A stretch of 64,000 nt of DNA. Origin: Acidimicrobiia bacterium (lineage in GTDB: Bacteria > Actinomycetota > Acidimicrobiia > Spongiisociales > ZC4RG35). Shown here one piece after another: positions 1,439 through 22,955 of this stretch. The stretch is from positions 4,537 to 68,536 of the forward strand of contig DATKEA010000044.1 of assembly GCA_035544615.1 (NCBI GenBank), written 5' to 3'. A program made the position numbers and the translations under genes. The first letter of the stretch is position 1. Every line of letters starts with the position of its first letter. The notes beneath the pieces are model-generated. The model saw nothing but the letters and a program-made list of their open reading frames with translations. It had not been told where the DNA came from and made no database searches.

Positions 1439-1439
1439 C

Positions 1440-3764: not shown

Positions 3765-4190
3765 TCAGCCTTCCAGTTTGTCCTTGGCTTCTTCGGCCGC
3801 GCTGTCTATCGCGTCGGAGGCATCGTCAACCGCATCCTGTGCCGCCCCGACTGCGTCGGCAGCGGTCTCCTTGGCATCCTCCACGGCCGACTGAGCCGTC
3901 GAAGCAGTGTCCGACGAACCCGCCTTGTCCCGCAACTCGTCGATCTTGGCACCGGTCTTCTCCACCGCATCCTGTGCGAAGTCCTTGGTCTTCTCGACGT
4001 ACGGTTGAGCCTTCTCCGCCAGTTCGGAGCCTTGCTCCTTCGCCTTTTCCATCAGGGGCTTGGCCTTCTCCGCCAGCTCCGCTCCTTGCTCCTTCGCCTT
4101 TTCCATCAGGGGCTGGGCCTTCTCGGCCAATTCCGCTCCTTGCTCCTTCGCCTTTCCAAACCACCCCTTGAGGGTGTCCATCAGTGCCAT
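3765..4190 (-). CDS. small alanine/glutamate/lysine-rich helical repeat protein (LEA/apolipoprotein-like composition), function unknown
   Basis: 141 aa. Strong SD (AAGGAGAA) 4 nt upstream of the ATG at 4190. Three 18-aa units KAKEQGAELAEKAQPLME. No TM segment or signal peptide. Confidence 0.7.
   Translation of the reverse strand: MALMDTLKGWFGKAKEQGAELAEKAQPLMEKAKEQGAELAEKAKPLMEKAKEQGSELAEKAQPYVEKTKDFAQDAVEKTGAKIDELRDKAGSSDTASTAQSAVEDAKETAADAVGAAQDAVDDASDAIDSAAEEAKDKLEG
3993..4154. repeat. 3 x 54-nt in-frame tandem repeat inside the 141-aa gene
   Basis: Near-identical 54-nt units are visible directly, e.g. cttcgccttttccatcaggggc(t/g)tggccttctc(c/g)gcca(g/a)(c/t)tccgctccttgctc. They encode codons 13-66. 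Confidence 0.9.
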
Positions 4191-4281
4191 CGTTTTCTCC
4201 TTGTCATTAGGTACCCCGAATCGTAGGGACCTGAGGCCGAAGGTGTGAAGGGGAGGCCGGAAAGGGTGGTCGACAACACAA

Positions 4282-6375
4282 CTAGCGTTGCAGGGATAGA
4301 GCTTCGGGACCGTCGACCGCCAGCCAGAGAACCACGTCGTTCTCGCCGGGGAGAAGGGTCTCCGGTGGAATCAGCACCTCAAAGCTCGCAGACGACCCCT
4401 CGGGATCGAAAACCCGGGTGACCGCCACCACCTCACCATCCGACGAGACGACGAGGACTTCTCTCCCCGTGGCGGCTTGCTCCAGGCGGAGTGTGCCGGA
4501 GAGGTAGACCGGCAGCACCTCAGGATCAGGGGGCAACGACTCCAACAATTCCTGTTGCCTCACAGTCACCGAGACGTCAGGCACCTCGGTGGTGCTGATC
4601 GCGTCCAGTGAGAGACCCAACCACTCATGCCAGCCGGGTGGGGTGAGGGCCCACGGATCGCCCTCGGGGAACCAGGTCTCCTTCAACGCGGCTGCGGCGA
4701 GTTTCTCGGTCCCGTCGACGCCGAACTCCACCGGCCCCTCGGGACCGAGCATCACCGATTCGGTGCGCCGGGCCCGCTCCGGATCGAGGAGAGAGAGCCC
4801 CTCCACATCCCAGGGCAGGCTGATCCCGATCACGTCGGCCACCGTAGGCACCAGGTCGACCGTCTCAGCTCTGACGTCGTCGATCTTCCCCGGCTGCACG
4901 CCGGGGAACCCGCTCGGGTATTTCACGAACATTGGCACCGCGGCGATGGTGCCGATGGTGTCGGGGGTGATGAGGCGCTGATGCTCGACGCCGGGGCGGA
5001 TGGTTATCCCGTGATCGGCGACGATGATCAACAGGGACTCGTCATAGATCCCCTCGGACTCCAACCGCTCGATCACCAATCCCACGACGGTGTCGGCGTA
5101 TTGAGACTGGATGATGTGACGCTGGTACCCCTGTGCCACCAGCCAGTCGTCGGTGTTCCAGCCCGCCCCCTCCCCACCTGGCGAGTTGCCGGCGCCGGTC
5201 CGCTGACCGTCGGCTGTCAGCTCCCATGGGTGATGGGGAAAGAGGAAATGGCCAAACCGCAATGGTGGAGCCGAGTCGTCGAAGTCGAAGGTCTCCAAGA
5301 GACGTGCGACCTCGAGTCTTCGGTCGGCGTCGACGTTGGCCAGGAAGCGATCGATGATGTCGAATTCGGATCGCTCGCCGGTGGTGAAGTTGCCCCATGT
5401 CCGGTCGATCACCGGAAGACGGTCGGAAACCGAACGGGGGAGTACCAGATGGCCGTACACGACCGATAGGTCCACCGCCAACGATCTCCAACGTTTTCCG
5501 ACCGGCTCGATTCTCCGACTCGAGTTCTCACAGGCGAAGGCGGGGCAGAGATCGGTGACCGTCTCCACCGCTGCCTCGTCATAGGCGTCAGACAACAGCG
5601 TGAAGAGGGTGAGAGGGTGGTCCGAAGAGATCGGGATACTGCCCGGACTGGCACCCACACCCGAGAGAATGGTGGGAAGCGCTTCCTCGGTCTGCTGCCG
5701 CACGCCCACCCCGTTTCGATACCAGACTCCGTCGCCGGCGAGCGCGGCGAAGTTCGGGAACAGGTCTGCCAGCAGCTCACCACTCGAATCGATCATGGTT
5801 GCGACGGGGAACTCGTCGAAGACCAGCATCACGATCGGGACCGGATTCCCCACTTCACCGGTATCGGGGAGCTCGCCGGAGCTGGCGAACGCGACATCGC
5901 TGGCCGGGGTCATCACGAGGAACCAAGCGGCGAACGCAATCAGCGCCCAGGAGGCATAACCCACGGCGGCTTGGGTCATCCGGGATCGGACAAACAAGAA
6001 GGCGAAGACGGCGCCGGCGGAGAGCGCCACCACCACGAATACCGCGGATGGCGCGTCGCTCCCCAGGAGGGCAACCCACGCCGAGGCGACGAACATGGCG
6101 AAAAGCCCTCCGAGGACGACCGCGTGTGCCGTCCCCGCACTGCGCGGGCCGATCCACCTCAGGGCGAGCACCGGGATGGCAAGCACCGCCGGCAAGACCA
6201 GGACGACCAACGGGAAGAGCATGACGTCGAGAGGGGTGAATCCCCGGGCTACGAAGAATTCGGGGTTCCGTCCCAGCAGATCGAGGATGGGTTGGCTGAA
6301 CCCGAAGGCTCCCACCGTGGCGGCCGACAGCGGCATCTTCCACCAGGGGATGGACCCGAGCTGGGCCAGCGTCAT
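4282..6375 (-). CDS. membrane-anchored sulfatase-like enzyme (alkaline-phosphatase superfamily, LtaS/phosphoglycerol-transferase-like architecture)
   Basis: 697 aa. The N-terminal ~170 aa holds several TM helices. It is followed by VMLVFDEFP... and ...IIVADHGI, typical of the sulfatase/phosphotransferase fold, plus an extra C-terminal domain. Confidence 0.7.
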   Translation of the reverse strand: MTLAQLGSIPWWKMPLSAATVGAFGFSQPILDLLGRNPEFFVARGFTPLDVMLFPLVVLVLPAVLAIPVLALRWIGPRSAGTAHAVVLGGLFAMFVASAWVALLGSDAPSAVFVVVALSAGAVFAFLFVRSRMTQAAVGYASWALIAFAAWFLVMTPASDVAFASSGELPDTGEVGNPVPIVMLVFDEFPVATMIDSSGELLADLFPNFAALAGDGVWYRNGVGVRQQTEEALPTILSGVGASPGSIPISSDHPLTLFTLLSDAYDEAAVETVTDLCPAFACENSSRRIEPVGKRWRSLAVDLSVVYGHLVLPRSVSDRLPVIDRTWGNFTTGERSEFDIIDRFLANVDADRRLEVARLLETFDFDDSAPPLRFGHFLFPHHPWELTADGQRTGAGNSPGGEGAGWNTDDWLVAQGYQRHIIQSQYADTVVGLVIERLESEGIYDESLLIIVADHGITIRPGVEHQRLITPDTIGTIAAVPMFVKYPSGFPGVQPGKIDDVRAETVDLVPTVADVIGISLPWDVEGLSLLDPERARRTESVMLGPEGPVEFGVDGTEKLAAAALKETWFPEGDPWALTPPGWHEWLGLSLDAISTTEVPDVSVTVRQQELLESLPPDPEVLPVYLSGTLRLEQAATGREVLVVSSDGEVVAVTRVFDPEGSSASFEVLIPPETLLPGENDVVLWLAVDGPEALSLQR

Positions 6376-8512: not shown

Positions 8513-9709
8513 ATGCGTCGAATCTCGATCATCGTCATAGGGCTGTTGGCGGCCTGCAGCTCTGAGCCCGGTTTGCAACCGACGTCCTCGGCGGGGCCAT
8601 CTCTCACCACTGCCAGCACATCGAGTGTCACCACCACGTCGACGACCGTGCCCGCGACTTCCACCGCCACCACGCTTCCCACGAGCAGCACGCTGTCTCC
8701 GGATGAGACCGTCCTCGGATACGAGGTGATCGCCGACCTGAGTTTCCCGGTGCAGACCACTGCCCGGCCCGGCGACCCTCACTCCTATGTCATCACCAAG
8801 GAGGGGCAGGTATGGATCCTCGACGGGGTGGCGGTCTTGGAGGACCCCGTGCTCGATATCCGCGATCGAGTCCTCGACAGAGGGGAACAGGGGCTGCTGT
8901 CGATGGCATTGCATCCCGAGGACGAGAGCCGGTTCTATCTCCACTACTCGGACAACAACGGGGACACCGTCGTCTCCGAGTTCGTGCTCACCTCGCCGGG
9001 TCAAGCCGACCCGGCGAGCGAGAGGGTGCTGCTTCAAGTCGATCAGCCGGCAGGCAATCACAACGGCGGCATGCTTCAGTTCACCGTCGACGGAGCCCTC
9101 CTCCTCGGTCTGGGAGATGGTGGTGGCAGTGGTGACCGGTATGGCAACGGGCAGAACCCCGACACTCTGCTGGCCGGTCTGGTGGTGATCGACGTGGATG
9201 GGGCAGAGCCGAATCCGACTAAATACGCCATGGGGTTGCGTAATCCGTGGCGGTTCTGGATCGACGAGAACGCGATCTACATCGCCGATGTCGGACAGAA
9301 CGCCTACGAGGAGATCTCCGTCTCGGAGCCGCTCGAGCCCGGGCACAACTACGGCTGGCCGATATTCGAGGGATTGAATTGCTTCTCTTCCCCGGACTGC
9401 GACGGAGCGGGATTGGTCGCCCCGGTCCTCGAGGTCGAGCACGGTGATGCCGGCACTTGCTCGATCACCGGCGGGGTGGTGTACCGGGGACCGGCGATGC
9501 CGCAGCTCCACGGGCATTTCTTTTACTCCGACTATTGCGGGGGCTATCTGAGAAGCCTGCTCCACGTCGACGGTGAGGCCACCGCCCTCCGTGACTGGAC
9601 CGAGCAGGTTGGTGTGCCGGGCAGTGTGACCGGCTTCGGTGTGGACGGGGCCGGCGAGATGTACCTCACCACGACCGAACAGCTTCTGAAAGTGGTCCCC
9701 ACCGGTTGA
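8513..9709 (+). CDS. PQQ-dependent sugar (glucose/sorbosone) dehydrogenase lipoprotein
   Basis: 398 aa. Lipobox LLAAC, Ser/Thr-rich linker. HNGGMLQF, GLGDGGGSGD and GLRNPWRF are typical of soluble aldose dehydrogenase beta-propellers. Confidence 0.8.
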   Translation: MRRISIIVIGLLAACSSEPGLQPTSSAGPSLTTASTSSVTTTSTTVPATSTATTLPTSSTLSPDETVLGYEVIADLSFPVQTTARPGDPHSYVITKEGQVWILDGVAVLEDPVLDIRDRVLDRGEQGLLSMALHPEDESRFYLHYSDNNGDTVVSEFVLTSPGQADPASERVLLQVDQPAGNHNGGMLQFTVDGALLLGLGDGGGSGDRYGNGQNPDTLLAGLVVIDVDGAEPNPTKYAMGLRNPWRFWIDENAIYIADVGQNAYEEISVSEPLEPGHNYGWPIFEGLNCFSSPDCDGAGLVAPVLEVEHGDAGTCSITGGVVYRGPAMPQLHGHFFYSDYCGGYLRSLLHVDGEATALRDWTEQVGVPGSVTGFGVDGAGEMYLTTTEQLLKVVPTG

Positions 9710-9763
9710 CCCCGCTCAGTCGCATGTCGGAGGCCGTCGCGGGGTCGGGATAGGCTCTACCTC

Positions 9764-10186
9764 GTGCCCAGCGTCTTTACCCGCATCATCGAAGGGGAGA
9801 TCCCCGGTACCTTCGTCTGGAGAGACGAACAGTGTGCCGCCTTCATGTCGATCAACCCACTTCGCCGCGGCCATACCCTCGTCGTGCCACGGATGGAGAT
9901 CGATCACTGGTTCGATTGCCCACCCGACTTGATGGACCACCTGATGGCAGTGTCGCGTGAGATCGGGGCCGCCCAGCAACAGGTCTTCCAGCCGGTACGC
10001 ATCGGTCTCATGGTCGCCGGTCTCGAGGTGCCCCACCTCCACATCCATCTGGTGCCGATCGATGGGGTGCACGACCTCGACTTCGCCAATGCCGCGGTCT
10101 CGGTTGAGCGGGATGATCTCGAGGAAGCCGCATCGGCGATCCGTCAATTCCTTCAGTCCAGGGGTCTTTCCGGAGTAGCCGACTAA
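9764..10186 (+). CDS. HIT (histidine triad) family protein
   Basis: 140 aa. FTRIIEGEIPG at the N-terminus and the histidine triad HLHIHLVP. Confidence 0.85.
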   Translation: MPSVFTRIIEGEIPGTFVWRDEQCAAFMSINPLRRGHTLVVPRMEIDHWFDCPPDLMDHLMAVSREIGAAQQQVFQPVRIGLMVAGLEVPHLHIHLVPIDGVHDLDFANAAVSVERDDLEEAASAIRQFLQSRGLSGVAD

Positions 10187-11584: not shown

Positions 11585-12742
11585 GTGGCAACCTTGGTCT
11601 TTCTCAAGCTGGTGGTGAACACCGCCCTTCGCTTCGTCTACCCGTTCCTGCCCGCAATCGCCAGAGGGCTCGGGATCGACCTGACCCAGGCCGGAATGCT
11701 GGTTTCGGTGCGCTGGGTGAGTTCCCTCACCACACCGGCGGTGATGAGCTTCTCCGGGGACGTGCACCGAACCAGACGCCTCCTCGTCGCAGGGTTGACC
11801 ATGTTCGGCGCCGGTTCCATCGTCACCGCCTGGACCGGAATCTACATCGGGGCCGTGATCGGTTTCGCCCTGGCGGGCCTGGCCAAGCCCATGATCGACA
11901 TCGGCTCCCAGCTGTACATCTCGGAACGGGTCCCCTACCGGCGCCGGGCCCGCTACCTGGGAGTCCTCGAGGTTTCCTGGGCCGGGGGGCTGCTCGTCGG
12001 TGCTCCCGCCGCCGGCTGGCTCATCGGAAACTGGGGCTGGGAGGCGCCATTCTGGGCGCTGGGATCGCTCGGGCTGGTAGGGATCGGACTGGCGCTGATC
12101 TTTCTCGATCGGCGCGATCAAGCCGCCTCGAGTCGGGGGACCAAGGCCCCGGATAGCCCCGGCGGCCAGGTGATAATGCTCCTCGGTACCATCGCCCTGT
12201 TCGGCTTCGCCCACGAAGGGGTCCTGGTCACACTCGGGGGATGGCTGGAGGGCAGCTTCGCCATGACCCTCCTCGCACTGGGCGGGGTGGGAACCCTGCT
12301 CGGGGTCTCCGAGCTGGCCGGCGAGGGAGCCATGGTCGCTTTCACCGACCGCATCGGGAAACGCAACTCGCTGGCTCTTGGGCTGGGGGTGGGGTGTCTC
12401 TGCCTGTACGCGCTCTCGTTCTCCTCCGAGGTGGCCGCCCCGGCGCTGACCGCTCTCGCCCTTGCCACCGTGGCCTTGGAGTTCGGCTACATCTCGGTGA
12501 TCCCCTTGATGACGGAGCTCCGACCCCGAGGCAGAACCCGGATCCTGGCACTGTCGGTGGTGGCCAACGGGCTGGGGCGAATGGCCGGCGACTTGGTCTC
12601 CCCCCGGCTGTTCACGGCGGGTGGGATGCAACTGGTGACGATGGTGGCCGCGAGCGTCGTTCTGTGCGCCGTGATACTGGTGCTGGTCGGGGTGAGAGAG
12701 GTCAGTGCCGAGGAGCGGTACTTGGCGGGGAGGGAGAGCTAG
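11585..12742 (+). CDS. MFS transporter
   Basis: 385 aa, GTG start, ~12 TM helices. The loop DVHRTRRLLV between TM2 and TM3 resembles the MFS signature. Confidence 0.75.
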   Translation: MATLVFLKLVVNTALRFVYPFLPAIARGLGIDLTQAGMLVSVRWVSSLTTPAVMSFSGDVHRTRRLLVAGLTMFGAGSIVTAWTGIYIGAVIGFALAGLAKPMIDIGSQLYISERVPYRRRARYLGVLEVSWAGGLLVGAPAAGWLIGNWGWEAPFWALGSLGLVGIGLALIFLDRRDQAASSRGTKAPDSPGGQVIMLLGTIALFGFAHEGVLVTLGGWLEGSFAMTLLALGGVGTLLGVSELAGEGAMVAFTDRIGKRNSLALGLGVGCLCLYALSFSSEVAAPALTALALATVALEFGYISVIPLMTELRPRGRTRILALSVVANGLGRMAGDLVSPRLFTAGGMQLVTMVAASVVLCAVILVLVGVREVSAEERYLAGRES

Positions 12743-13880
12743 TAGTGGCCCTCCGCTCGTAGTCGACGATCGTCGACCGGAGGTAGGCGGTGGCCCGATC
12801 GAATCCGTGTCGGGCGTGACTCGTGGTGTATGCCAGGACCCGGGTGAGCCAGAGACGGAAGGCGAGCGATTCCCAGGCCGGGTCGCCGAGGGCGAATCCG
12901 TCGAGGAGGAACCCGTGCACCTGGTGCCAGCGGTCGGCGTCCATGAAGGACAAGGACCGATCCGGCCCGGAACGGAGCAACTGCTCGGCCGTATCTTCAG
13001 GGAGGAGGCGGGCCAGGGCTTTCTCCCGCTCGGACCAGGGTGCGTCGAGCAGCCGGATCGTGCCCTCGATGTCATAGGCGACGACCTGTTTCAGATCCTC
13101 GGGGACGGGGGCGGCCGGATCGCTCCCGTGCCGGGCGTCGGGGGTCGGCGCGGGGAGGCCGGACAGGGACGTCGCAGCGTCGAGACACTCGACCAACATG
13201 ACCCTGAGCTCTTCGAGCGACCCGTACAGGGCATGGCGCTTCCCGTCGGCGACGTGGTGCTCGTAGAGACCGAGGCCCATCACCGAGGTGGCGTAGGTCA
13301 TGACGGTGTCGATCCCCCAGTCGGATCGGTTCCGGACCAGCTCCGAGGCGGCCAGCAACTCGACCGCCTCCCGGCCGAGCAGCACCTCACCCCCCAGCGG
13401 CTGGTCGAGCCGGGGCAAGAATGTCCCCGGAAAGAGCCGGGCCAGGGCCGGTCTCGTGATCATCCAGGTGATCATGGCGTCGGTGGAAGCACGGGGGAAC
13501 CGGTGCCTGACCACCCCATACCCACGGTCTGCGGCCGTTTCGGCGCCCTCGATCCAGGAAGAGTCGAAGTTGGTGATGTCGGCGTCGTAGAAATGGACCC
13601 GGTGGCGGCCCTGGTCGGCGGCGAGCGCGATAGCGGTGTTGAGAGCATCCCCCTTACCGGGTCGGAGGGTGCCGATCCTCTCCTGGATGATCACCTCCAC
13701 CCGCTTCCCCGATGCCACCGCCAACTCCCGACCCGACCTTCGCAACGCTTGGGGCCCATCTCCTTCTTCGGTGGCCACGGCCCACACCTCGTCTATCGCC
13801 GGATGGGCGGCCGCCGTTGCCAGGTTGGACGCGACCAGCGAAGGAGCCTCCGACTTGAAGGGGAACACGGCGAGGCTCAC
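12702..13880 (-). CDS. mgs: mannosylglycerate synthase-like glycosyltransferase (GT78-type, single-step GDP-mannose:D-glycerate mannosyltransferase)
   Basis: GTG start at 13880 gives VSLAVFPFKSE.... From memory of Rhodothermus marinus mannosylglycerate synthase I recognise FPFK at the N-terminus, QERIGTLRPGKGDALNTA, HFYDADITNF (DxD), VRHRFPRASTDAMITWMITR, QPLGGE, RSDWGIDT and LYGSLEELRVMLVEC. The first 78 codons of the 470-aa ORF are antisense to herA and were rejected. Confidence 0.65.
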   Translation of the reverse strand: MSLAVFPFKSEAPSLVASNLATAAAHPAIDEVWAVATEEGDGPQALRRSGRELAVASGKRVEVIIQERIGTLRPGKGDALNTAIALAADQGRHRVHFYDADITNFDSSWIEGAETAADRGYGVVRHRFPRASTDAMITWMITRPALARLFPGTFLPRLDQPLGGEVLLGREAVELLAASELVRNRSDWGIDTVMTYATSVMGLGLYEHHVADGKRHALYGSLEELRVMLVECLDAATSLSGLPAPTPDARHGSDPAAPVPEDLKQVVAYDIEGTIRLLDAPWSEREKALARLLPEDTAEQLLRSGPDRSLSFMDADRWHQVHGFLLDGFALGDPAWESLAFRLWLTRVLAYTTSHARHGFDRATAYLRSTIVDYERRATTSSPSPPSTAPRH

Positions 13881-13934
13881 CAGGCGAGGATAGGTACCCC
13901 CAACCTGTCCCAACCGCGGTCTACGCTCGCCATC

Positions 13935-15608
13935 ATGGAGGAGATGGTCGGTCGTGTCCTGGGAACCGTCGATGCCACCCCACTCGAGTTCTGGGTCGGA
14001 GTGGCGGATGGTGAGTACCTGGAGCTCGACGACGTGGTCGCCCTCGAACGTGTCCTGCCCACGGGGGAGCTGGTGAAGATATTCGGGACGGTGAGCCAGG
14101 TCAGGGCCCGTCATGAAGGTGCTCGCTTCGACTCAGATGTCTTTCTGATCGAAGACGGAGTGCTCCCGGCCGAAGTGGTCGAAGCGGCGCAAGTGACGGC
14201 TACCCGCGTAGAGCCCGAGATCTTTGTCCCGCCCCGTCCCGGGCAGCCGGTGAGACGGGCACGTGGTGAGGAGCGGGACCAGGCACTGTTCTTCGATCGC
14301 ATGGAGCGGCGGTTCCCGGTTGGTGCCTCCCGGAATGGTGAGCCGCTCTTCGCCAACTTCGAGTTCCTGAATGGGCAGCGTGGCGCACACGTCAACATCT
14401 CCGGGGTCTCCGGGGTGGCCACCAAGACCAGTTACGCCACCTTCTTGCTCCACTCGGTGTTCACTTCACAGGTGTTGGGCCCGGCCGCGGTCAACACCAA
14501 GGCCTTGATCTTCAACGTCAAGGGCGAGGACTTGCTTCATATCGACCGGCCTAACACCAGCCTCGATGACGACGCCAGGCGCCGCTACCGCACCCTCGGG
14601 CTTCCGGCCGACCCGTTCGGCTCGGTCGGGTTGTTCGCTCCGCCTCGACCCGGCTCGGATCGGGCGGTGGCCGACGTCAGCTCCCGATCCGACATCACTT
14701 CCTTCTTCTGGACTCTGGCCGAGTTCTGCCATGACGACTTGATGGTGTTCCTGTTCGCCGATGCCGAGGACGAGCGGTCCCAGTACACCATGGTGGTGTA
14801 CAACGTGATGGCCCAACTCGAACGTGCCGAGGCCACGGACGGGGGAGCAGTCAGGATCGAGGGTGAGACCGTGCGCACGTTTCGTGATCTGGCAGACCTG
14901 ATCTCGCGCAAGGTGCAGGATGACGACTCGAGATACGACTGGGCGGGGCCCCACATCGGCCAGGGCACCGTCAACGCCTTCGTCAGACGCCTCCAGGGCG
15001 CAGTCCGGCATGTCGAGCGGCTGATCCGGGGTGACATCGCCAACCCGGCGCGACATCGGATCGAAGTGCAGGGTCATCAGGTGACCGTGGTCGACCTTCA
15101 CAATCTCAACGATCGGGCCAAACGGTTCGTGGTCGGGGTGACGGTGAGGAAGGCTTTCGAGGACAAGGAGCGGGCCGGGCAGTCCGAGGAGCTGTTGTTC
15201 CTGGTTCTCGACGAGTTGAACAAGTACGCCCCACGTGAGGGATTCAGCCCGATCAAGGAAGTTCTCCTCGATGTTGCCGAGCGGGGACGCTCCTTGGGCG
15301 TGATACTGATCGGGGCTCAGCAGACGGCATCAGAGGTGGAGCGACGCATAATCGCCAACTCGTCGATTCGAGTGGTGGGTCGCCTCGACTCCGCGGAGGC
15401 GTCACGTGAGGAGTACGGATTCCTTCCCTCGGCCCAGCGGCAACGAGCGACGATCCTGAAACCGGGGACGATGCTGCTTGCCCAACCCGAGTTGCCGGTC
15501 CCGCTGGTCCTCGAGTTCCCGTTCCCGGCATGGGCCACGAGAGCCTCCGAGGCCGGGGCGCTCCCGGGCTCGGGCGGGGGGCCCGCCGACCCTTTCCAGG
15601 ATTTGTAG
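13935..15608 (+). CDS. herA: HerA-type (FtsK/HerA superfamily) hexameric ATPase/helicase
   Basis: Protein-like sequence begins at ATG 13935 (MEEMVGRVLGTVDATPLEFWV...). N-terminal barrel-like domain. P-loop NISGVSGVATKTSY (14403-14429), Walker B LLFLVLDELNKYAP, and GVILIGAQQ...RVVGRL. The first 410 codons of the 967-aa track ORF are antisense to mgs. Confidence 0.75.
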   Translation: MEEMVGRVLGTVDATPLEFWVGVADGEYLELDDVVALERVLPTGELVKIFGTVSQVRARHEGARFDSDVFLIEDGVLPAEVVEAAQVTATRVEPEIFVPPRPGQPVRRARGEERDQALFFDRMERRFPVGASRNGEPLFANFEFLNGQRGAHVNISGVSGVATKTSYATFLLHSVFTSQVLGPAAVNTKALIFNVKGEDLLHIDRPNTSLDDDARRRYRTLGLPADPFGSVGLFAPPRPGSDRAVADVSSRSDITSFFWTLAEFCHDDLMVFLFADAEDERSQYTMVVYNVMAQLERAEATDGGAVRIEGETVRTFRDLADLISRKVQDDDSRYDWAGPHIGQGTVNAFVRRLQGAVRHVERLIRGDIANPARHRIEVQGHQVTVVDLHNLNDRAKRFVVGVTVRKAFEDKERAGQSEELLFLVLDELNKYAPREGFSPIKEVLLDVAERGRSLGVILIGAQQTASEVERRIIANSSIRVVGRLDSAEASREEYGFLPSAQRQRATILKPGTMLLAQPELPVPLVLEFPFPAWATRASEAGALPGSGGGPADPFQDL

Positions 15609-15669
15609 CTCCCCGGTTCTGTCCCAGTCCAACTCTACGATCGGGGCCGATGACGACGCCGTCGCCTCG

Positions 15670-16800
15670 ATGAGGCTTCTCCACACTTCCGACTGGCACG
15701 TCGGGCGGAAGATCCGTGGTCGATCCCGGGTGGACGAGCATCGAGCCGTCCTCGACGAGATCGTCGATGTCGCAAGGGATCGCCGGGTCGATGCCACCCT
15801 GGTAGCCGGCGATCTGTTCGACGTGTCCTCACCGTCTCCTGAGGACGAGGCCATCGTGTATCGGGCGCTGCTGGACCTGGCCGAGATCGGCCCGGTCCTG
15901 GTGGTCGCCGGGAACCATGACAGCCCGGCTCGTCTCGAGGCAGTCAAGCCACTGCTCGACCTGGGTCGGATCACCGTGGCGGCCCGTCCCTCCCCACCCG
16001 CCGAAGGTGGGGTCGCCGTTGTCGAGTCGCTCGGCCTCAAGGTCGGCATGCTGCCGTTCGTCACTCAGCGCGGGATCGTCAAGGCCGAGCAGATCATGAA
16101 CCTCGACCCCGATCAACACGCCCAGAGTTACGAGGCCCGATTGCGGAGAGTCATCGAGTCTCTTGTCGAGGACATGGGGCTCGACACGGTCAACGTCGTG
16201 ACCGGGCATCTCACGGTCTATGGCGCGGCCAGCGGTGGGGGAGAGCGCGAGTCCCACATTTTCGGCTATGCGATTCCACCTCAGGCGTTCCCGGGAAGCT
16301 TGTCCTATGTCGCCCTGGGTCATCTTCACCGACAGCAACGAATCCCTGCCTCCGCCCCGGTCTGGTACAGCGGGTCGCCGCTTCAGCTCGACTTCGGGGA
16401 AACCGGTGATCACAAAGGGGTCCTGATCGTGGACGTCGAAGCAGGCAACCCCGCCTCTGTCGAGCCGGTCGCCCTCTCCTCGGGAATAAGGCTGGTCCAG
16501 GTCGGTGGCACTCTGGAACAGGTGCTCTCCATGTCGGCGGAGCTCGAAGACGCATACGTCAAGGTCATGCTCGACGAGCCAGGACGGGCCGGGCTCAACG
16601 ACGAAGTGCGGGCCGCGATACCCGGTGCGGTCGAGGTCAATATCACCCGCACCGAAAACGGTGAGCCTCGAGAGCGGGTGGCACGGGCGGGCCGCACACC
16701 GATCGAGCTGTTCGAGTCCTATCTCGAGTCGAGACAGGTCGACGATCTCGCTGTGGTCCAGCTGTTCCGTGAGCTGGAACAGGAAGTGATGTCGTCATGA
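15670..16800 (+). CDS. sbcD: Mre11/SbcD-family nuclease
   Basis: Start at ATG 15670 (MRLLHTSDWHVG). Calcineurin-like phosphoesterase motifs DWHVG, GDLFD, GNHD and GHL. 376 aa. Confidence 0.85.
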   Translation: MRLLHTSDWHVGRKIRGRSRVDEHRAVLDEIVDVARDRRVDATLVAGDLFDVSSPSPEDEAIVYRALLDLAEIGPVLVVAGNHDSPARLEAVKPLLDLGRITVAARPSPPAEGGVAVVESLGLKVGMLPFVTQRGIVKAEQIMNLDPDQHAQSYEARLRRVIESLVEDMGLDTVNVVTGHLTVYGAASGGGERESHIFGYAIPPQAFPGSLSYVALGHLHRQQRIPASAPVWYSGSPLQLDFGETGDHKGVLIVDVEAGNPASVEPVALSSGIRLVQVGGTLEQVLSMSAELEDAYVKVMLDEPGRAGLNDEVRAAIPGAVEVNITRTENGEPRERVARAGRTPIELFESYLESRQVDDLAVVQLFRELEQEVMSS

Positions 16801-19130
16801 GACCACGGCGACTGATCATGGAGGGCTTTCTCGCCTACCGCCAACGAACGGAAGTCGACTTCACCGACGCAGACCTCTTCGTGCTCTCCGGCCCCACCGG
16901 TTCGGGCAAGTCGAGTGTCATCGACGGGATGACGTTTGCTCTCTACGGGACGATCCCACGTCTGGACGACCGTCGCTCCGTCGCCCCGGTGATCTCGGCG
17001 ATGTCCGATCGGGCGCGGGTCTCTTTCGAGTTCACGGTGGGCGATGAGACCTACACCGCTGTCCGTCTTGTCACGCGAACTCGAACCGGCGCCACGACCA
17101 GCGAAGCGCGGCTTGAGCGGGGCAGTCAACACGAGGTGCTTGCCGGCAACGCCGATGACGTCACCAGCGAGGTGGGCCGGCTCCTTGGTCTCAGCTACGA
17201 GCACTTCACCAAAGCGGTGGTCCTACCCCAAGGTGACTTTGCCCAGTTCCTCACCGACCGTCCCGCCGATCGTCAGGCTCTGCTCCGTGCCCTGCTCGAG
17301 ATCGGCCTCTTCGAGCAGGTGATGCAGTTGGCCAACTCCAGGGCCCGTATCGCCGAGACCCGGGCCCAGGCTCTGGGGGAGAGTCTGGCCAAGCTCGAGG
17401 TCCCTACACCAGAGCAGCTCGACGAAGCGCGAAACCGGCTGAGCCGGCTCGTGGAGGCCGTCGCCGAGTTGCCTGCCCGGGGCGGAAGACTGAGCCAACT
17501 CGAGGTGAGTCATCGCGAGGTCAAGGCGGCCCAGACGGCAATCGAGGAGAGCTTGGGCCGGTTGGCCGGCGTCTCGCCACCGCCTGACCTCGACACCCTC
17601 GATCGAGATCGGGTCGAGGCTGGTGACCATCTCGACAAGGCGGGGGACAGTTTGGCCCGCATCGTCGATGCCCTGACCGAGGTGGATAAGGCTCTGGCCG
17701 AGCATCCCGGGCTACAAGAACTCGAAGCGTGGCAAGCCGACCGGGAGCGACTCCGTGAGCTGACGGAGAATCGCGCCGCGCTCGACTTCGACGGTCTCAG
17801 CTCGGCCTTAGAGGAGGCAGCTTTGGCCCGCGACGAGGCCAGGGCACATCTAGACCGGCTTCGGGTCGAGCACGCCGCACAAGATCTTCGTCGAGCGCTG
17901 GTGGCTGGTGACCCGTGCCCCGTCTGTCATTCGGTGATCACCGAGATCCCGGGAGAAAGCGAGTTGGCACATGGGTCTATCGACCGAGCCATGGCTGACG
18001 TCGCGGGCCTCGACTCACGTGCCGGCGAGGCGCGTGATCGTCTCAAGGAGGCGGAAGGGCAGTCGAAGCAGATCGGGCAACGACTGGCCGAGATCGAAGA
18101 TCGGCTCGGCAGCGCACCATCGCCCGACCAAACCGAGGCCGGCATCGTCGCGGTCCGGCAGTTGCTGGCCAGACGCGGCGAAGCCGAACAGGAGGCGGTT
18201 GCCGCTCGTGCCGATCTCGAAGCCGCTCAATCGGCGGTCAACCGGTTGAGCGAGAGGACAGCCGGCTTGCGCGAGACGCTGCTGGCGGCTCGTGATCGGG
18301 TGGCGGCGGAGGAGCCACCGTTGCCCGGCGATGACGTTGTCGCCGGCTGGCGCGATTTCGAGCTCTGGCGTGTCGCGCAGATGCAGCGGCGGAAGGAACA
18401 TCTGGTCACTGCGCGCGAGGCGGTCGAAGCCGCCGCCGAAGAGCTGTCGAGGTCATCTGCCGAGCTCGAGGTGTGGCTCCGAGGCCTCGGGGTCGAGGCT
18501 ACCGGGTCGCCCGAGACCGACCTGGCGCTGGCCAAGGAACGTCAGGACTCCGAGATAAGGGAGTTGGAGAGGACGGTGACCGAAGCGACGGAGCTGGCCA
18601 AAGAGCTGGAGGTGGAGACCACACGTGCTCGTGTTGCCGCATCGCTAGGCACCCATCTCCGCTCCAACAACTTCGAGGCCTGGCTGTTAGAGGAAGCCAT
18701 GGACACTCTGATCGATGGCGCCAACCGCCTCCTCGACGAGTTGTCCGGTGGTGCTTATTCACTGCTGGCCCGCGACGCTCAGTTCGTGGTGGTCGACCAT
18801 CGCAACGCGGGGCTGATTCGGACGACGAGAGGCCTGTCCGGCGGGGAGACGTTCCTGGTGGCCCTCTCCCTCGCCCTCTCCATGGCGGAACAGCTCGCCG
18901 AGCTGACCGGTATGTCCTCTCGTTTGGAGTCTGTGCTCCTGGACGAAGGTTTCGGGTCGCTTGACCAGGAGTCCCTGGATGTGGTCGCCTCGGTACTCGA
19001 CGATCTCGTGGGCAAGGGGAGGACCGTCGGCATCGTCACCCACGTCCGTGAGTTGGCGGACCGCATGCCCGTTCGCTTCGAAGTCACCAAAGGCCCCGAG
19101 ACGGCGTCGATCGAGAAGGTGATGACGTGA
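16797..19130 (+). CDS. sbcC: Rad50/SbcC-family SMC-like ATPase
   Basis: 777 aa. Walker A GPTGSGKSS, long Ala/Glu/Leu/Arg coiled coil with a central CPVC zinc hook (17916-17927), signature LSGGETF, Walker B VLLDEGFGSLD. ATGA overlap with sbcD. Confidence 0.85.
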   Translation: MRPRRLIMEGFLAYRQRTEVDFTDADLFVLSGPTGSGKSSVIDGMTFALYGTIPRLDDRRSVAPVISAMSDRARVSFEFTVGDETYTAVRLVTRTRTGATTSEARLERGSQHEVLAGNADDVTSEVGRLLGLSYEHFTKAVVLPQGDFAQFLTDRPADRQALLRALLEIGLFEQVMQLANSRARIAETRAQALGESLAKLEVPTPEQLDEARNRLSRLVEAVAELPARGGRLSQLEVSHREVKAAQTAIEESLGRLAGVSPPPDLDTLDRDRVEAGDHLDKAGDSLARIVDALTEVDKALAEHPGLQELEAWQADRERLRELTENRAALDFDGLSSALEEAALARDEARAHLDRLRVEHAAQDLRRALVAGDPCPVCHSVITEIPGESELAHGSIDRAMADVAGLDSRAGEARDRLKEAEGQSKQIGQRLAEIEDRLGSAPSPDQTEAGIVAVRQLLARRGEAEQEAVAARADLEAAQSAVNRLSERTAGLRETLLAARDRVAAEEPPLPGDDVVAGWRDFELWRVAQMQRRKEHLVTAREAVEAAAEELSRSSAELEVWLRGLGVEATGSPETDLALAKERQDSEIRELERTVTEATELAKELEVETTRARVAASLGTHLRSNNFEAWLLEEAMDTLIDGANRLLDELSGGAYSLLARDAQFVVVDHRNAGLIRTTRGLSGGETFLVALSLALSMAEQLAELTGMSSRLESVLLDEGFGSLDQESLDVVASVLDDLVGKGRTVGIVTHVRELADRMPVRFEVTKGPETASIEKVMT

Positions 19131-20032
19131 AGTTCGATGTCGAAGCCTGGGACCCCGCCTACGGCGCCCCTTCGGAGGCCGAGCTCGTCGACTCGACCGA
19201 GAACGTGGACCCATCGGTGGAGCTGGAGGCCGATCAGTGGCGTCCATTGCTACCTGAGAGCGACCCTGCGCCCGACATTCTGTTCGTCGACGGAGTGAGA
19301 CGGGTCGATGCCAATCTTTGGATAGATCGGGAAGGTCGTTTCCCCGGTTTCGGCCTTGCCGCCACCTTTGCCGCCGGTGCGGTCCGCTGCAATGGAGGCG
19401 CCAAGGTCGTGGCGGCGGAAGTCAGGCGGGGGGTTTTCACGGGCATCGATGCCGACCCGGTCGAGACATCCATGGGGCGGTATGAGGTGATGTCGACGAG
19501 GGGGTCGACCCCCGAGGAGCTGTGGCTTGGGATCCAGGAACGGATGGGGGACCTCGAGGGTCTCGTCGCCGAGAGCCAGGGCGACGCCGCCCTCGTTGTG
19601 GTCGATGGGCCTCTGTCGCACCGACGTCACGTGGACGGCGCGGTCGGCTACGTGAAGACCCAGCACGTCCAGTACCTTCCGGACGAGCTCCGGGCCACCC
19701 TGGCCGTGCTTCCCGTCGGTTATCGCACCCCGCTATTTCTGACCACCACGTCGTGGAGTCGATTCTCGTGGTATCTGAGGTTGGCCAACGGAACCGGCCC
19801 CGCCGGCGGTCTCGTCCGGTGTGAAGTGAAAGCTGACATGGGTGTGAGCGACGCGGCTCGTCTGGCCCATCTCGTGAGCGCTTCTCTGCCGAGATACGCC
19901 TCCGCCCGCCACAAAGACCCACGCGCCCCTCAGAACCTGTATCCGATCGGTGGCCTCGAGCGAGAGTTGCGCCGGCGTCTCGGCGACCGTGATCTGGCGA
20001 TGCGCGCCCTGCGAGTGGCAGCCGGCAAGTAG
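19127..20032 (+). CDS. NurA-like nuclease candidate (301 aa)
   Basis: GTGA overlap with the sbcC stop. ILFVDGVRR, an acidic MGDLEG region and a second ALVVVDGPL block resemble the DGS / E / DGSL pattern of RNase-H-fold NurA nucleases. Its position after herA-mre11-rad50 matches the archaeal operon. The call rests on context plus a weak motif. Confidence 0.5.
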   Translation: MKFDVEAWDPAYGAPSEAELVDSTENVDPSVELEADQWRPLLPESDPAPDILFVDGVRRVDANLWIDREGRFPGFGLAATFAAGAVRCNGGAKVVAAEVRRGVFTGIDADPVETSMGRYEVMSTRGSTPEELWLGIQERMGDLEGLVAESQGDAALVVVDGPLSHRRHVDGAVGYVKTQHVQYLPDELRATLAVLPVGYRTPLFLTTTSWSRFSWYLRLANGTGPAGGLVRCEVKADMGVSDAARLAHLVSASLPRYASARHKDPRAPQNLYPIGGLERELRRRLGDRDLAMRALRVAAGK

Positions 20033-20044
20033 GTGTTGGAAAGC

Positions 20045-20075
20045 GCAGTGGGAGCGGTGAGCCCGCTCCCACTGC
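20045..20075 (+). terminator. perfect 13-bp stem / 5-nt loop hairpin 13 nt after the nurA-like stop
   Basis: gcagtgggagcgg-tgagc-ccgctcccactgc read directly. There is no U-tract after it, which is common for high-GC actinobacterial terminators. Confidence 0.6.
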
Positions 20076-20494
20076 AGTGTGGAGGACCGCAATTACGTTG
20101 CAGTTGCGGTCGAATCCGGGCTTTCACCCGGACAGTGCTTTGACGCCCTGCACGCCGTGGCACTCAGTAGCACTCGGGAGGAATGCTTCTGGGCCGGTTA
20201 TTCCTTCGCCATCCGGGGGCATGCCCAGATTGTCGGCCACTTGATTGATCGCCTGTAAGGCCACCAAGAAGCACTCTCCGACCAGGTCGGCGACTATCGG
20301 GATTGGGGCAGCGTCTGACTACATAGCGGGAAATGACATGTACAAGACGACGGAAGAAGACGGAATACGCCTCCGGTCGACCCAGCCGATGTAGCCCGCA
20401 ACAACTCCGAGTCCGAACGGTCCACCACTCATGCACTATGCCCAGAGCCCCGCAAAGCGTGTCGGTAGCGACGTGTTTCCGACGATACCGGCTC

Positions 20495-20914
20495 TCAGAA
20501 CCCGATCCGGACGTCGCGCAACTGTGCCTGGGCGCGAAGCACGTCGAGCTCACCAGCTTCGAGGAATCGATCGAGCAGTATGTGTCTCTTCCGATCCTCG
20601 GTCACTACAACCAGACCCCGGTTCCTCGGCCGGACGATGGCTGCGATGTCATCCCATGCCACCAGTTGGCGGCGAAGCAGGCAGATTCGGTGGATGCCAC
20701 TCGAATTGACGTCGACGGCGATCGGGAAGTCGAATGCTGCCACGTACCCGAGCCCGGCGGTGAGGAGAGCGAGGAGCGCGGTGAGGAAAACGGAGGCGTC
20801 GACGGCCCAGGAGCCCCAGGCCGCGGCGAGGAGCAGAGGCGGGGTCGCCACGGAAAGGGCGATGCGCAACCTCGATTCGCTTAGCCTCAATCGAACAGCC
20901 TCACGGGGCATCAT
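20495..20914 (-). CDS. bacterial PH-domain membrane protein
   Basis: Two TM helices (LLLAAAWGSWAVDASVFLTALLALLTAGLGYV), then a ~70-aa domain (IHRICLLRRQLVAWDDIAAIVRPRNRGLVVVTEDRKRHILL) typical of the bPH fold. Start placed at the MM at 20914/20911. The 20959 start would overlap the upstream gene by 59 nt. Confidence 0.6.
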   Translation of the reverse strand: MMPREAVRLRLSESRLRIALSVATPPLLLAAAWGSWAVDASVFLTALLALLTAGLGYVAAFDFPIAVDVNSSGIHRICLLRRQLVAWDDIAAIVRPRNRGLVVVTEDRKRHILLDRFLEAGELDVLRAQAQLRDVRIGF

Positions 20915-21851
20915 TCGCGATATCCGCGGGCGCCACGGGTCGTGTCGACCCGGATTCACGTCTCGATGCGAGTAGGGCGCCCACGATCACCAAGAGCGAT
21001 CCAAGCACGGCCAAAGGTGCGATGCTCTCGTTCCTGAAGACCACCCCCAAGACAAGGGCAACCACCGGCATCAGATAGGTGATGAAGGTCGACCTGGTGG
21101 CACCTACGCTGCCGACGAGGGATCCCATCATCAGGAATGCGATGCCGGTCCCGAGAAATCCGACCGCCAAGGTGGCGGCGAGCGACGGCCAGGCGAACTC
21201 CGATCGGGTCAGTCCAAAAAGCCCGTACGGGGTCACCAGCACGGTCGCGACCATCAGGGTGCGTCCCATGACCGGGATGGTGCCATAGCGTTGTTGGAGT
21301 GGGGCGACGATGTTTGTGGAGAACCCGTAACAGAGCGTGGCGAGGACGACGAGGATCACACCGAGCGCCTCGGTGTTACCGGACCCGGCCGAGGGAAGCG
21401 CGATCGCCAGAATCCCGAGAAACCCGACGGCAAGACCGCCTACCTGGAGACGGCCGGGGAGTTGGCGGAGCAGCAGAGAGGCGATGATGGCGGTGAAGAT
21501 TGGAGTCGCTCCGTTGAGCATCCCGGCGAGTGCCGAATCGATCCACTGCTGGGCGATGGGGAACAGGGTGAATGGGATCGCCACCCAGATCACGCCGAGG
21601 AGGACCACGCGGGGCAGGTCCTCGCGCGGGATCCGTGTCGCCCTCGCCTGGGGCAGCATTGCCATCAGGAGAGCGCCGAACCCGACACGCAGCCAGGTGA
21701 GAAGCCCCGGGTGGAAGGCGTCGAGACCGATGGCGATGAACAGGAAGGATGCTCCCCAGATCAAGCTGACGGCTACGAAGCGGAGCCAATCGGCAGCGCT
21801 GAATGCCTCCCGGTTGGTTCCGTGCGATGTGGTCAGTAGTCGATTGCTCAT
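20901..21851 (-). CDS. EamA/DMT-family transporter
   Basis: 316 aa, 10 TM helices. WGASFLFIAIGL and a duplicated EamA-type half. Confidence 0.8.
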   Translation of the reverse strand: MSNRLLTTSHGTNREAFSAADWLRFVAVSLIWGASFLFIAIGLDAFHPGLLTWLRVGFGALLMAMLPQARATRIPREDLPRVVLLGVIWVAIPFTLFPIAQQWIDSALAGMLNGATPIFTAIIASLLLRQLPGRLQVGGLAVGFLGILAIALPSAGSGNTEALGVILVVLATLCYGFSTNIVAPLQQRYGTIPVMGRTLMVATVLVTPYGLFGLTRSEFAWPSLAATLAVGFLGTGIAFLMMGSLVGSVGATRSTFITYLMPVVALVLGVVFRNESIAPLAVLGSLLVIVGALLASRRESGSTRPVAPADIANDAP

Positions 21852-21956
21852 AGTGCTGGAACACCAAGCTTCCCAATGCGGTTGCGGTCGTCTCAGGAAC
21901 GTGTGAAGTCGGTCAAATAGTCCTGGTCGTCAGCAACGATCACACACTCGGCGAAA

Positions 21957-22955
21957 TCAGTTCTCCGACTTGGCGTCGCGAGTCATCAGGCTCATTACGG
22001 CGTCCCGTGGGTGCATTCCCTCGTGGAGCACGAGTCCGACGTGAGCCGCGATCGGCATCTCGATATCCTTCCGGGCCGCGAGATCGAGCACGGCGCGCGT
22101 GGTCTTGACACCCTCGGCGACCATTCTCATCTCCTGGACGATCGCATCGAGGCTCCGTCCCTGAGCCAGCCCGACACCGACCCGGTGGTTGCGGCTCTTG
22201 GTCGAGATACAGGTTGCAATGAGGTCACCCATCCCGGCCAGCCCGTCGAAGGTGGTGGGCCGGCCACCCAGGGCGATCCCGAGCCGGGTCAGTTCGGCCA
22301 GGGCACGTGTGATCAAAGTGGCACGGGTGTTGTCTCCGAATCCCAGCCCGTCCGACATGCCGGCTGCAATCGCCATCACGTTCTTCAGGGCGCCGCCCAG
22401 CTCGCAGCCGGTCACATCGTCGTGGGTGTAGACCCGGAATGTCGGGCCCATGAAGACCGACTGCAACGAGACCGCAGTCTCGGAATCCCCGAAAGCGACG
22501 ACCGCGGCCGTCGGCTGCCCGGCGGCCACCTCGTCTGCGAGATTGGGCCCGGTCAGGACCCCTATTCGTCCCGGGTCGTGCCCCGGTGACACCTCGGAGA
22601 TGATCTGCGTCATCGTGGCCAGCGTGTCCTGCTCGATTCCCTTGGTCAACGAGACGATTGGCACACTGGGGTCGATGTCCTTGACCGCCGCGGCAAAGAC
22701 CTCCCGGAATCCGTGCGATGGGACGGCCATGACGACCGCCGAGGCATCGGCGACTGCCTCTCGAAGGCGGGCGGTCGCACTTAGAGACTCGGGCAATCGC
22801 AACCCTGGGAGGTAATCGGGGTTCTCCCGGTGCTGGTTGATGTGGTCGGCCACCTCGCTCCGGCGCGCCCAGAGAACGGTAGGTGACGAACCGGCGGCGA
22901 GCAGGGCGGCGGTGGTGCCCCACGAGCCTGCTCCGATTACGGCGATCTTGGTCAC
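21957..22955 (-). CDS. gpsA: NAD(P)H-dependent glycerol-3-phosphate dehydrogenase
   Basis: 332 aa. MTKIAVIGAGSWGTTAA Rossmann start, LTKGIE, GALKNVMAIAAG, SRNHRVG. Confidence 0.9.
   Translation of the reverse strand: MTKIAVIGAGSWGTTAALLAAGSSPTVLWARRSEVADHINQHRENPDYLPGLRLPESLSATARLREAVADASAVVMAVPSHGFREVFAAAVKDIDPSVPIVSLTKGIEQDTLATMTQIISEVSPGHDPGRIGVLTGPNLADEVAAGQPTAAVVAFGDSETAVSLQSVFMGPTFRVYTHDDVTGCELGGALKNVMAIAAGMSDGLGFGDNTRATLITRALAELTRLGIALGGRPTTFDGLAGMGDLIATCISTKSRNHRVGVGLAQGRSLDAIVQEMRMVAEGVKTTRAVLDLAARKDIEMPIAAHVGLVLHEGMHPRDAVMSLMTRDAKSEN

Follow-up and report, generated by a model that had tools for sequence, protein, structure and literature searches.

The stretch of DNA analysed here (hereafter, the window) comprises 64,000 nucleotides of contig DATKEA010000044.1 from an Acidimicrobiia bacterium of the phylum Actinomycetota. 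It harbors four consecutive genes on the same strand, herA, sbcD (mre11), sbcC (rad50) and nurA (Table 1). A sequence-only reading of the region had proposed this very set, and open reading frames (ORFs), sequence profiles and matches to PDB structures all agree with it; the motifs that it listed, including the CPVC zinc hook and the NurA segments FVDG and VVVDGPL, are in place as well.

The spacer between the herA stop codon and the sbcD ATG is 61 nt long, sbcD beginning at its canonical start rather than at position 15478, where the longest ORF opens. The other two junctions, read directly from the sequence, are overlaps: the sbcD stop codon shares ATGA (16797–16800) with the start of sbcC, and the sbcC stop codon shares GTGA (19127–19130) with the start of nurA, which bears out the earlier proposal of translational coupling. 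The hairpin thought to close the unit is also real, with a folding energy (dG) of −34.5 kcal/mol and z = −5.04, and none of 200 shuffled sequences folded as well. A scan for T-run terminators did not pick it up, and we describe it as a terminator-like element at the end of the four-gene unit. An Rfam scan of positions 12000–22000 returned no RNA family.

Table 1. Features of the herA–sbcD–sbcC–nurA module (window coordinates)
Feature	Position	Strand	Remarks
RecA-NDp-like motif, herA	13906-13927	+	TGTCCCAACCGCGGTCTACGCT = TGTC-N12-TAnnnT; -10 hexamer ends 7 nt before herA ATG
herA	13935-15608	+	557 aa ORF; M1 nearly invariant across homologues
HerA Walker A GVATKTS	14412-14432	+	K164/T165
HerA catalytic D199	within 14514-14531	+	aligned to D. 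radiodurans HerA D220
HerA Walker B VLDELNKYAPREG	15204-15242	+	D426/E427, pore R434
HerA TR-motif arginine R491	within 15372-15410	+	aligned to D. radiodurans HerA R552
RecA-NDp-like motif, second copy	15620-15641	+	TGTCCCAGTCCAACTCTACGAT; in herA-sbcD spacer, 28 nt before sbcD ATG
sbcD/mre11	15670-16800	+	376 aa; canonical N-terminus MRLLHTSDWHVG from ATG 15670
SbcD motif SDWHVG	15688-15705	+	phosphoesterase
SbcD motif GDLFD	15808-15822	+	phosphoesterase
SbcD motif GNHD	15910-15921	+	phosphoesterase
SbcD motif GHLH	16318-16329	+	phosphoesterase
sbcC/rad50	16797-19130	+	777 aa ORF
SbcC Walker A (GPTGSGKSS)	16890-16916	+	motif
SbcC Q-loop	17220-17234	+	motif
SbcC zinc hook CPVC	17916-17927	+	residues 374-377 of 777
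SbcC signature LSGGE	18834-18848	+	motif
SbcC Walker B (LLDEGF)	18936-18953	+	motif
SbcC H-loop	19035-19046	+	motif
nurA	19127-20032	+	301 aa ORF, GTG start
NurA D55 (FVDG)	19283-19303	+	candidate catalytic, invariant in homologue alignment
NurA D160 (VVVDGPL)	19595-19615	+	candidate catalytic, invariant in homologue alignment
NurA H262 (RHKDPRAPQNL)	19907-19939	+	candidate catalytic, invariant in homologue alignment
Terminator-like hairpin	20045-20075	+	13-bp perfect G+C-rich stem, 5-nt loop, no T-tract

Relationships of the four proteins

The sequence-only reading had proposed searches with Pfam profiles as a check. No Pfam family, the DUF87 and HAS-barrel models included, matched HerA at E ≤ 0.01, and homologues from the same clade likewise carry no precomputed Pfam domain in the database. 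Pfam models do not cover the Deinococcus-type bacterial HerA clade. The identity was settled by a sequence search against PDB, in which phmmer aligned residues 3–547 with residues 13–608 of Deinococcus radiodurans HerA (drHerA; 7f6d_B) at E = 2.6e-146. The assignment itself thereby stood. A profile of the HerA clade built from 27 sequences scored 731 bits against drHerA, compared with 21.8 bits for Sulfolobus HerA (4d2i) and 20–36 bits for HerA proteins of anti-phage systems (8xau, 9c1m and 8ziq). The functional residues of drHerA (K175/T176, D220, D487/E488, R495 and R552; PMC9960219) are all matched by identical residues (K164/T165, D199, D426/E427, R434 and R491). The drHerA acidic patch D78/E80/D81 is kept at its first position only (D68), with E73 and D74 nearby. 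Judging by homology, HerA is a bacterial Deinococcus-type double-stranded DNA translocase ATPase that is expected to form a hexamer, bind a NurA dimer and translocate DNA.

The second gene encodes a bacterial SbcD, the homologue of Mre11. All five phosphoesterase motifs (I–V: DWH, GDLFD, GNHD, GH and GHLH) are present, model TIGR00619 gave 177 bits (cut-off 77.65), the Pfam Metallophos family matched and SbcD_C reached 27.7 bits against a threshold of 24.4; archaeal Mre11 models gave only 35–51 bits. The product of the third gene is a short-coil bacterial SbcC, the Rad50 homologue. Pfam AAA_23 (73 bits) and SbcC_Walker_B (43 bits) both exceeded their cut-offs. TIGR00618 aligned with the head regions alone and reached 244.5 bits, short of the 478.5 set as its cut-off for full-length proteins; archaeal Rad50 models scored 51–77 bits. 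The archaeal Mre11 and Rad50 equivalog models, taken together, reached 35–77 bits on these two proteins, compared with cut-offs of 500–1087, and both proteins scored 3–4 times higher on bacterial than on archaeal models. The pair shares the phosphoesterase motifs, the ABC-ATPase head motifs and the CxxC hook with E. coli-type SbcCD, from which it differs in lying between herA and nurA and in the length of SbcC. Against the 1047 positions of the E. coli-type model PRK10246, the window protein has 777 residues, so its coiled coil is much shorter and its scores stay below full-length NCBIfam cut-offs. The central CP[VLI]C hook is kept in 41 of 47 orthologous SbcC ORFs.

The 301-residue product of the fourth gene passed the Pfam NurA model PF09376 marginally (22.2 bits; gathering score 21), and PDB sequence searches linked it to D. 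radiodurans NurA (drNurA; 7f6d_H, E = 8.4e-19) and Thermotoga TM1739 (1zup, E = 1.1e-6). The sequence-only reading had noted a NurA-like sequence pattern, and structure prediction confirmed the NurA fold. Foldseek searches of PDB with an AlphaFold2 model (pLDDT 77.6, pTM 0.77) retrieved NurA structures exclusively as top matches, led by 7f6d_G (E = 2.3e-18, TM-score 0.65) and 1zup (E = 1.7e-15). TM-scores to drNurA and TM1739 were 0.63–0.65, compared with 0.42 (E = 1.3e-7) for Sulfolobus NurA (2ygk). D55, D160 and H262 align with identical drNurA residues. A candidate catalytic glutamate lies in the helix spanning residues 129–150 (E130, E131 or E144); it is invariant and tentatively assigned by its position alone. 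These residues correspond to Asp51, Glu105, Asp126 and His411 of PfNurA (PMC3300031), the match to Glu105 being tentative. Sequence and model together identify the product as a NurA nuclease of bacterial type whose fold is RNase H-like.

The closest studied counterpart of the HerA/NurA pair is the D. radiodurans NurA–HerA complex (7F6D, 7WRW; PMC9960219). Its proteins belong to the same clade and have in common with those of the window the HerA Walker A and B motifs, the catalytic aspartate, the arginines equivalent to R434 (pore) and R491, and the NurA D/E/D/H residues. NurA is shorter in the window (301 residues versus a 369-residue chain). The gene arrangement also differs, as Deinococcus has a two-gene nurA–herA operon, whereas in the window nurA is coupled to sbcC and herA precedes sbcD. 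The Sulfolobus operon (PMC4351679, PMC3326311) offers the reverse case. It encodes the same four activities in the same one-strand order, with the same presumed division of labour, in which Mre11–Rad50 processes ends and HerA6–NurA2 resects them. Yet its proteins are only remotely related to those of the window, as the HerA score of 21.8 bits, the NurA TM-score of 0.42 and the 35–77 bits on archaeal Mre11/Rad50 models indicate. In addition, the HerA–NurA interface is hydrophobic in archaea and ionic in bacteria (PMC9960219), and regulation in the window appears actinobacterial, unlike that of the Sulfolobus operon. Of the archaeal-order module put forward from the sequence, the order is therefore as in Sulfolobus (PMC4351679), but the content is not archaeal: HerA and NurA are of Deinococcus type, and SbcD and SbcC are bacterial.

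Distribution and gene order of the module

Relatives of the window HerA were collected by scanning for its pattern in a single genome of each GTDB species. At least 590 GTDB species carry a HerA-clade relative, and the clade comprises 535 clusters at 50% identity (E ≤ 1e-30). The four window proteins were compared by tblastn with the best 80 HerA loci and two loci added to them. Among these best 80, 33 belong to Acidimicrobiia, 25 to Micromonosporaceae, including cultured Micromonospora, Actinoplanes, Longispora and Plantactinospora, 11 to unclassified Actinomycetota and two to Nitriliruptoria; two are unlabelled. The remaining seven are metagenome-assembled genomes (MAGs) of other phyla (Gammaproteobacteria, Acidobacteriota, Saprospiraceae and Dehalococcoidia), some of them on Mb-scale contigs. 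The closest relatives are Acidimicrobiia MAGs, the nearest being isolate SMAG_U2920 (locus L003), with a HerA 99% identical to that of the window.

A complete same-strand herA–sbcD–sbcC–nurA set is present at 65 of the 82 loci, and another ten are consistent with this order up to the point where the contig ends. The 4-nt overlap of sbcC and nurA recurs in 27 loci. Five loci have herA with no nearby partner; less than 3 kb of downstream DNA is available at four of them and 10 kb at the fifth (L010). The last two are a locus with no downstream DNA and an odd case (L030). Large sbcD–sbcC and sbcC–nurA "gaps" in the tblastn results proved to be artefacts, since only the SbcC heads had aligned; tracing of ORFs showed the genes to be contiguous. 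The sequence-only reading had considered the four-gene arrangement unusual, adding that it would be ordinary if common and already described across bacteria. Common across bacteria is what it turned out to be.

The odd case, L030, comes from a Candidatus Marinacidobacterales MAG. At positions 12914–14216, tblastn aligned the N-terminal head of SbcC alone; the corresponding ORF has 716 aa and lacks the central CxxC hook. A weak match to the NurA hidden Markov model (28.8 bits) lies in a frame overlapping the apparently truncated sbcC, and BLASTP did not identify the ORF that follows sbcC as NurA. This locus may be a decayed or misassembled copy.

The distant clade members that we examined, with HerA 30–47% identical to that of the window, all encode herA–sbcD–sbcC with nurA immediately upstream. 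They represent candidate division WS2 and Acidobacteria, a contig of 6.5 Mb, another from JGI, and a conjugative plasmid from a cyanobacterium. One of them (L088) has an extra gene between herA and sbcD (positions 8928–9782); it overlaps the end of herA, and its 284-aa product shows a faint match to DUF6263 and may be an accessory component. The same order, nurA–herA(hepA)–sbcD–sbcC, was noted in Oceanithermus profundus (PMC5448004). Clusters of the Oceanithermus type thus share with the window the one-strand linkage of bacterial HerA/NurA to SbcD/SbcC and differ in the place of nurA, which lies upstream of herA there and downstream of sbcC, with the 4-nt overlap, in the clade of the window. 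Since distant bacterial relatives carry nurA first, the Sulfolobus-like order is best read as a rearrangement within bacteria, an Actinomycetota-centred variant that most likely arose by relocation of nurA.

To our knowledge, studies of bacterial NurA–HerA have been confined to Deinococcus and Thermus, in which the two genes form a stand-alone pair. The statement of the sequence-only reading that bacterial NurA–HerA is encoded apart from SbcCD is accurate for these two genera and fails in general, as all of the distant clade members examined have the genes linked. Linkage of bacterial HerA/NurA to SbcCD is the usual state of the clade, and the stand-alone pair found in Deinococcus and Thermus appears to be exceptional. 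The genes have stayed linked independently in two arrangements, which speaks for a common function. The window module is therefore an ordinary member of a widespread and under-described bacterial operon and not a rare archaeal import. All four families and their cooperation were already known, and the bacterial nurA–herA/sbcDC linkage had been noted once, in Oceanithermus. The searchable literature yielded no account of the actinobacterial herA–sbcD–sbcC–nurA order, of its spread or of the paired promoter-like motifs described below, although an earlier mention is possible. NurA–HerA has been said to occur "in a few bacteria" (PMC9960219), and the connection of the Deinococcus nurA–herA operon to sbcCD "remained to be uncovered" (PMC4663267). 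Public genome data have outdated both statements. Our survey provides comparative-genomic support for a bacterial end-resection pathway comprising SbcCD and HerA–NurA, and the cultured Micromonospora and Actinoplanes offer tractable hosts in which to study it.

Promoter-like motifs upstream of herA and sbcD

Actinobacteria possess a RecA-independent DNA-damage promoter, RecA-NDp, with the consensus tTGTCRgtg-8nt-TAnnnT (PMC5656591). In mycobacteria it is bound by PafBC, a LexA-independent activator (PMC6789036, PMC8223512). Exact matches to its simplified form, TGTC-N12-TAnnnT, occur three times on the two strands of the 64-kb window (1.14 expected), and two of them lie directly upstream of herA and sbcD. 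This pairing of RecA-NDp-like motifs is a new observation of our analysis. The distance of 7 nt between the −10 hexamer and the ATG suggests that the herA mRNA is leaderless. The second copy is probably a separate promoter for sbcD–sbcC–nurA, and the module probably consists of two transcription units, herA alone and the translationally coupled sbcD–sbcC–nurA.

When the herA-upstream regions of relatives were aligned, the TGTC and TCTACnCTCG blocks were invariant, while the remaining DNA had diverged. The strict motif is present upstream of herA at 27 of 82 loci and upstream of sbcD at 16 of 77 (expectation, 0.004 per region), counts that come from related loci and do not represent independent events. 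With a relaxed −10 element ([TC]AnnnT), the motif is found within 200 nt upstream of herA at 55 of 83 loci; its form in Micromonospora and Actinoplanes is TGTCGTAC-N8-CAGGAT. Some relatives match the full consensus, for example locus L006 in its sbcD-upstream region (TGTCGGTG-N8-TACGAT). Six of the ten loci in which foreign inserts separate herA from sbcD (see below) keep the motif directly upstream of sbcD, which fits separate promoters for the two genes. The motif is conserved across actinobacterial loci, whereas the relaxed scan detected it neither in any of the seven copies from other groups nor in the plasmid copies.

Searches for other regulatory signals were negative. No SOS (LexA) box (TCGAAC-N4-GTTCGA, up to three mismatches) was found upstream of herA or sbcD, and a scan for the sigma-70 consensus found no promoter. 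Pfam scans of 44 of the ORFs called in the window, to which this search was confined, detected no WYL-domain regulator. By their sequence, the herA and sbcD promoters appear to resemble the actinobacterial RecA-NDp/PafBC DNA-damage type, and would then be inducible by damage.

The third match (TGTCGGCTTGGCTCGGTACTCT; 59693–59714, minus strand) lies 34 nt upstream of a K+-channel-like ORF (58849–59658, minus strand), in a divergent spacer that this ORF shares with a UDG-family gene. Its TGTCGG core is nearer to the mycobacterial consensus than either module site. We judged it to be probably a chance occurrence, given the 1.14 matches expected in the window.

Function of the module and alternative explanations

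The sequence-only reading had asked whether the module lies in a core or a variable context. With the exception of the genes of the module itself and a single ORF without a match, the 44 window ORFs scanned against Pfam encode transporters and metabolic or housekeeping enzymes; examples are mannosylglycerate synthase, GpsA, YchF, GcvP, acyl-CoA enzymes and an Opp transporter. Neither an integrase nor a transposase nor a defence gene turned up in these scans. Synteny extends over both flanks in a relative with an 85% identical NurA, and the GC content of the module (0.644–0.659) falls within the range seen elsewhere in the window (0.60–0.68). Only six of 72,556 plasmid records contain a relative, one of the six being an 11.8-Mb Nonomuraea replicon, and there are two phage records, both distant. 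The context is thus a core one, with syntenic housekeeping flanks.

We consider it probable, as the best-supported interpretation, that this is a chromosomal, vertically maintained bacterial module for double-strand break (DSB) end processing, responsive to DNA damage, in which SbcCD processes the ends and HerA–NurA resects them. DNA damage would activate the two near-identical RecA-NDp-like promoters. From what is known of the family, SbcD2–SbcC2 would recognize and trim ends, hairpins or blocked termini, its arms bridged by the CPVC zinc hook. By analogy with the D. radiodurans complex (7F6D) and archaeal biochemistry, a HerA hexamer would dock a NurA dimer on its HAS-barrel face and pump the duplex into the two RNase H-like sites of NurA, so that the 5′ strand would be degraded and a 3′ tail left for RecA. 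A physical hand-over of ends from SbcCD to HerA–NurA, and the size of the contribution of the module to repair, are inferred; in D. radiodurans that contribution is modest (PMC5448004). Resection activity has been reported for drNurA–HerA (PMC9960219) and for archaeal HerA–NurA (PMC3326311, PMC4351679), and in archaea homologous recombination repair requires the four-gene operon (PMC4351679).

Several observations weigh against this interpretation. As summarized in PMC5448004, loss of nurA/herA leaves the radioresistance of D. radiodurans unreduced, so the role of the complex in repair can be minor or modulatory. Unrelated inserts of 0.6–4 kb split herA from sbcD in ten loci, and at L010 herA stands alone with no sbcD within 10 kb downstream; the herA–sbcD junction is the weak link of the module. 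The window motifs match the mycobacterial consensus only at TGTC, the spacing and the −10 element, with CCAA and CCAG in place of "Rgtg", and in L003, despite its 99% identical HerA, the herA-upstream core (equivalent to 13906–13909) reads TGGC instead of TGTC. Finally, the copy on a linear plasmid of Streptomyces sp. BB1-1-1 (NZ_CP134205.1; L083, positions 1–6319) adjoins Wadjet-like genes.

A stronger version of the same proposal is that in Acidimicrobiia and Micromonosporaceae herA and sbcD–sbcC–nurA constitute a major long-range DSB resection machine, driven by two PafBC-type promoters, in which SbcCD physically hands ends to HerA6–NurA2, making it a counterpart of the archaeal pathway with an independently reached gene order. 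We regard this as possible, though rather doubtful. If true, it would answer whether SbcCD is functionally connected to bacterial HerA–NurA.

The weak junction is the starting point of a different explanation, in which the genes are co-regulated neighbours that build no joint machine. SbcCD and NurA would deal with hairpins or stalled forks and HerA would serve elsewhere, for example with RecJ or in chromosome segregation, and adjacency would reflect a shared damage regulon. The promoter-like motif of herA itself, the 61-nt gap, the repeated inserts and the solitary herA of L010 would all fit, as would the reported interaction of drHerA with RecJ (PMC4663267). On the other hand, neither NurA nor HerA works independently of the other in archaea or in D. 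radiodurans (PMC9960219, PMC3326311), and nurA is part of the module; moreover, the distance between herA and sbcD does not exceed a few kb in either gene order, across many phyla. We therefore find this explanation improbable.

Defence systems repeatedly contain HerA ATPases and SMC-like proteins, and the sequence-only reading had raised the possibility of a defence module. An SMC/Rad50-like sensor could act with a HerA–NurA translocase–nuclease to degrade foreign linear DNA in anti-phage or anti-plasmid defence. Along these lines, Blackwood et al. speculated that archaeal HerA–NurA may also destroy foreign DNA (PMC3326311). The L083 plasmid copy with its Wadjet-like and ImmA/IrrE neighbours would suit such a role, and the 65–70% identity of HerA from Actinomycetota with HerA from MAGs of other phyla implies horizontal spread. 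PADLOC-DB v2 gave weak matches to mad8, HerA, LmuB and mad3, but these were partial and confined to ATPase domains, and NurA gave no match and SbcD no noteworthy one. At 14–91 bits they are of a generic ATPase-head level, compared with 244 bits for SbcC, 177 for SbcD and 492–731 for drHerA. In the fold search, the NurA model also matched the TdpAB complex remotely (8wfd_G, E = 1.1e-5). TdpAB (8wfd), Sir2–HerA and DUF4297–HerA (8xau, 9c1m, 8ziq) indeed share with the window a HerA/FtsK-type ATPase fold and a nuclease partner. However, these anti-phage systems are remote (20–36 bits to the HerA profile; TM-score of 0.42 between NurA and TdpB), and neither a Sir2 nor a DUF4297 partner is present at the window module, whose context is core and not a defence island. 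Together with the Pfam-scanned ORFs of the 64-kb window, which include no defence, integrase or transposase gene, the conserved flanking synteny, the near absence of relatives from plasmids and phages, and promoters that appear to be of the DNA-damage type, this leaves the defence proposal with little support, and we hold it to be quite unlikely.

A recent horizontal acquisition of an archaeal herA–mre11–rad50–nurA operon would explain the gene order shared with Sulfolobus (PMC4351679) and would accord with the Thermus literature, in which bacterial HerA is taken to be archaeal in origin (PMC5448004), but it is hardly credible given the HerA profile scores (731 bits to drHerA versus 21.8 to 4d2i), the NurA TM-scores (0.63–0.65 to drNurA and TM1739 versus 0.42 to Sulfolobus NurA), the 3–4 times higher scores of SbcD and SbcC on bacterial models, the lack of a GC anomaly and the nurA–herA–sbcD–sbcC order in distant bacterial relatives.

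Some features of individual loci and of the rest of the window deserve separate mention. The ten insert-bearing loci are L008, L013, L014, L016, L028, L051, L052, L068, L070 and L077; the sbcD–sbcC–nurA trio is intact in them, and the inserts encode an oxidoreductase, an acetyltransferase-like protein, a MerR-like regulator and a possible transposase, among others. The sbcD-upstream motif of L003 is identical to that of the window, and the TGGC upstream of its herA is a natural single-base variant. The four genes of L083 adjoin, back-to-back, a Wadjet-like cluster (TIGR02680/TIGR02678/DUF2397) and a gene for an ImmA/IrrE metallopeptidase, the sole defence-like neighbourhood that we saw; the SbcC of L083 is much longer (1117 aa) and annotated as "SMC family ATPase".

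In the window, a mannosylglycerate synthase gene (12702–14114, minus strand; Pfam MGS_GT, 288 bits, and MGS_C) is divergent from herA, with its real start probably near 13838, and this adjacency is kept in L001. Mannosylglycerate is a compatible solute usually tied to thermophiles and halophiles; here, its synthase is encoded in a soil-type Acidimicrobiia lineage. At the far end of the window, the UDG-superfamily gene (59884–60609, plus strand) has an internal tandem duplication. It contains two Pfam UDG stretches, and the protein repeats read GLWTAAAGLHFAHPTNRFWPAMRRSGL and GLWTAAANTHFCHPSNRFYPALRGAGL; at the DNA level, a 22-nt direct repeat occurs at positions 59981 and 60143, 162 nt apart.

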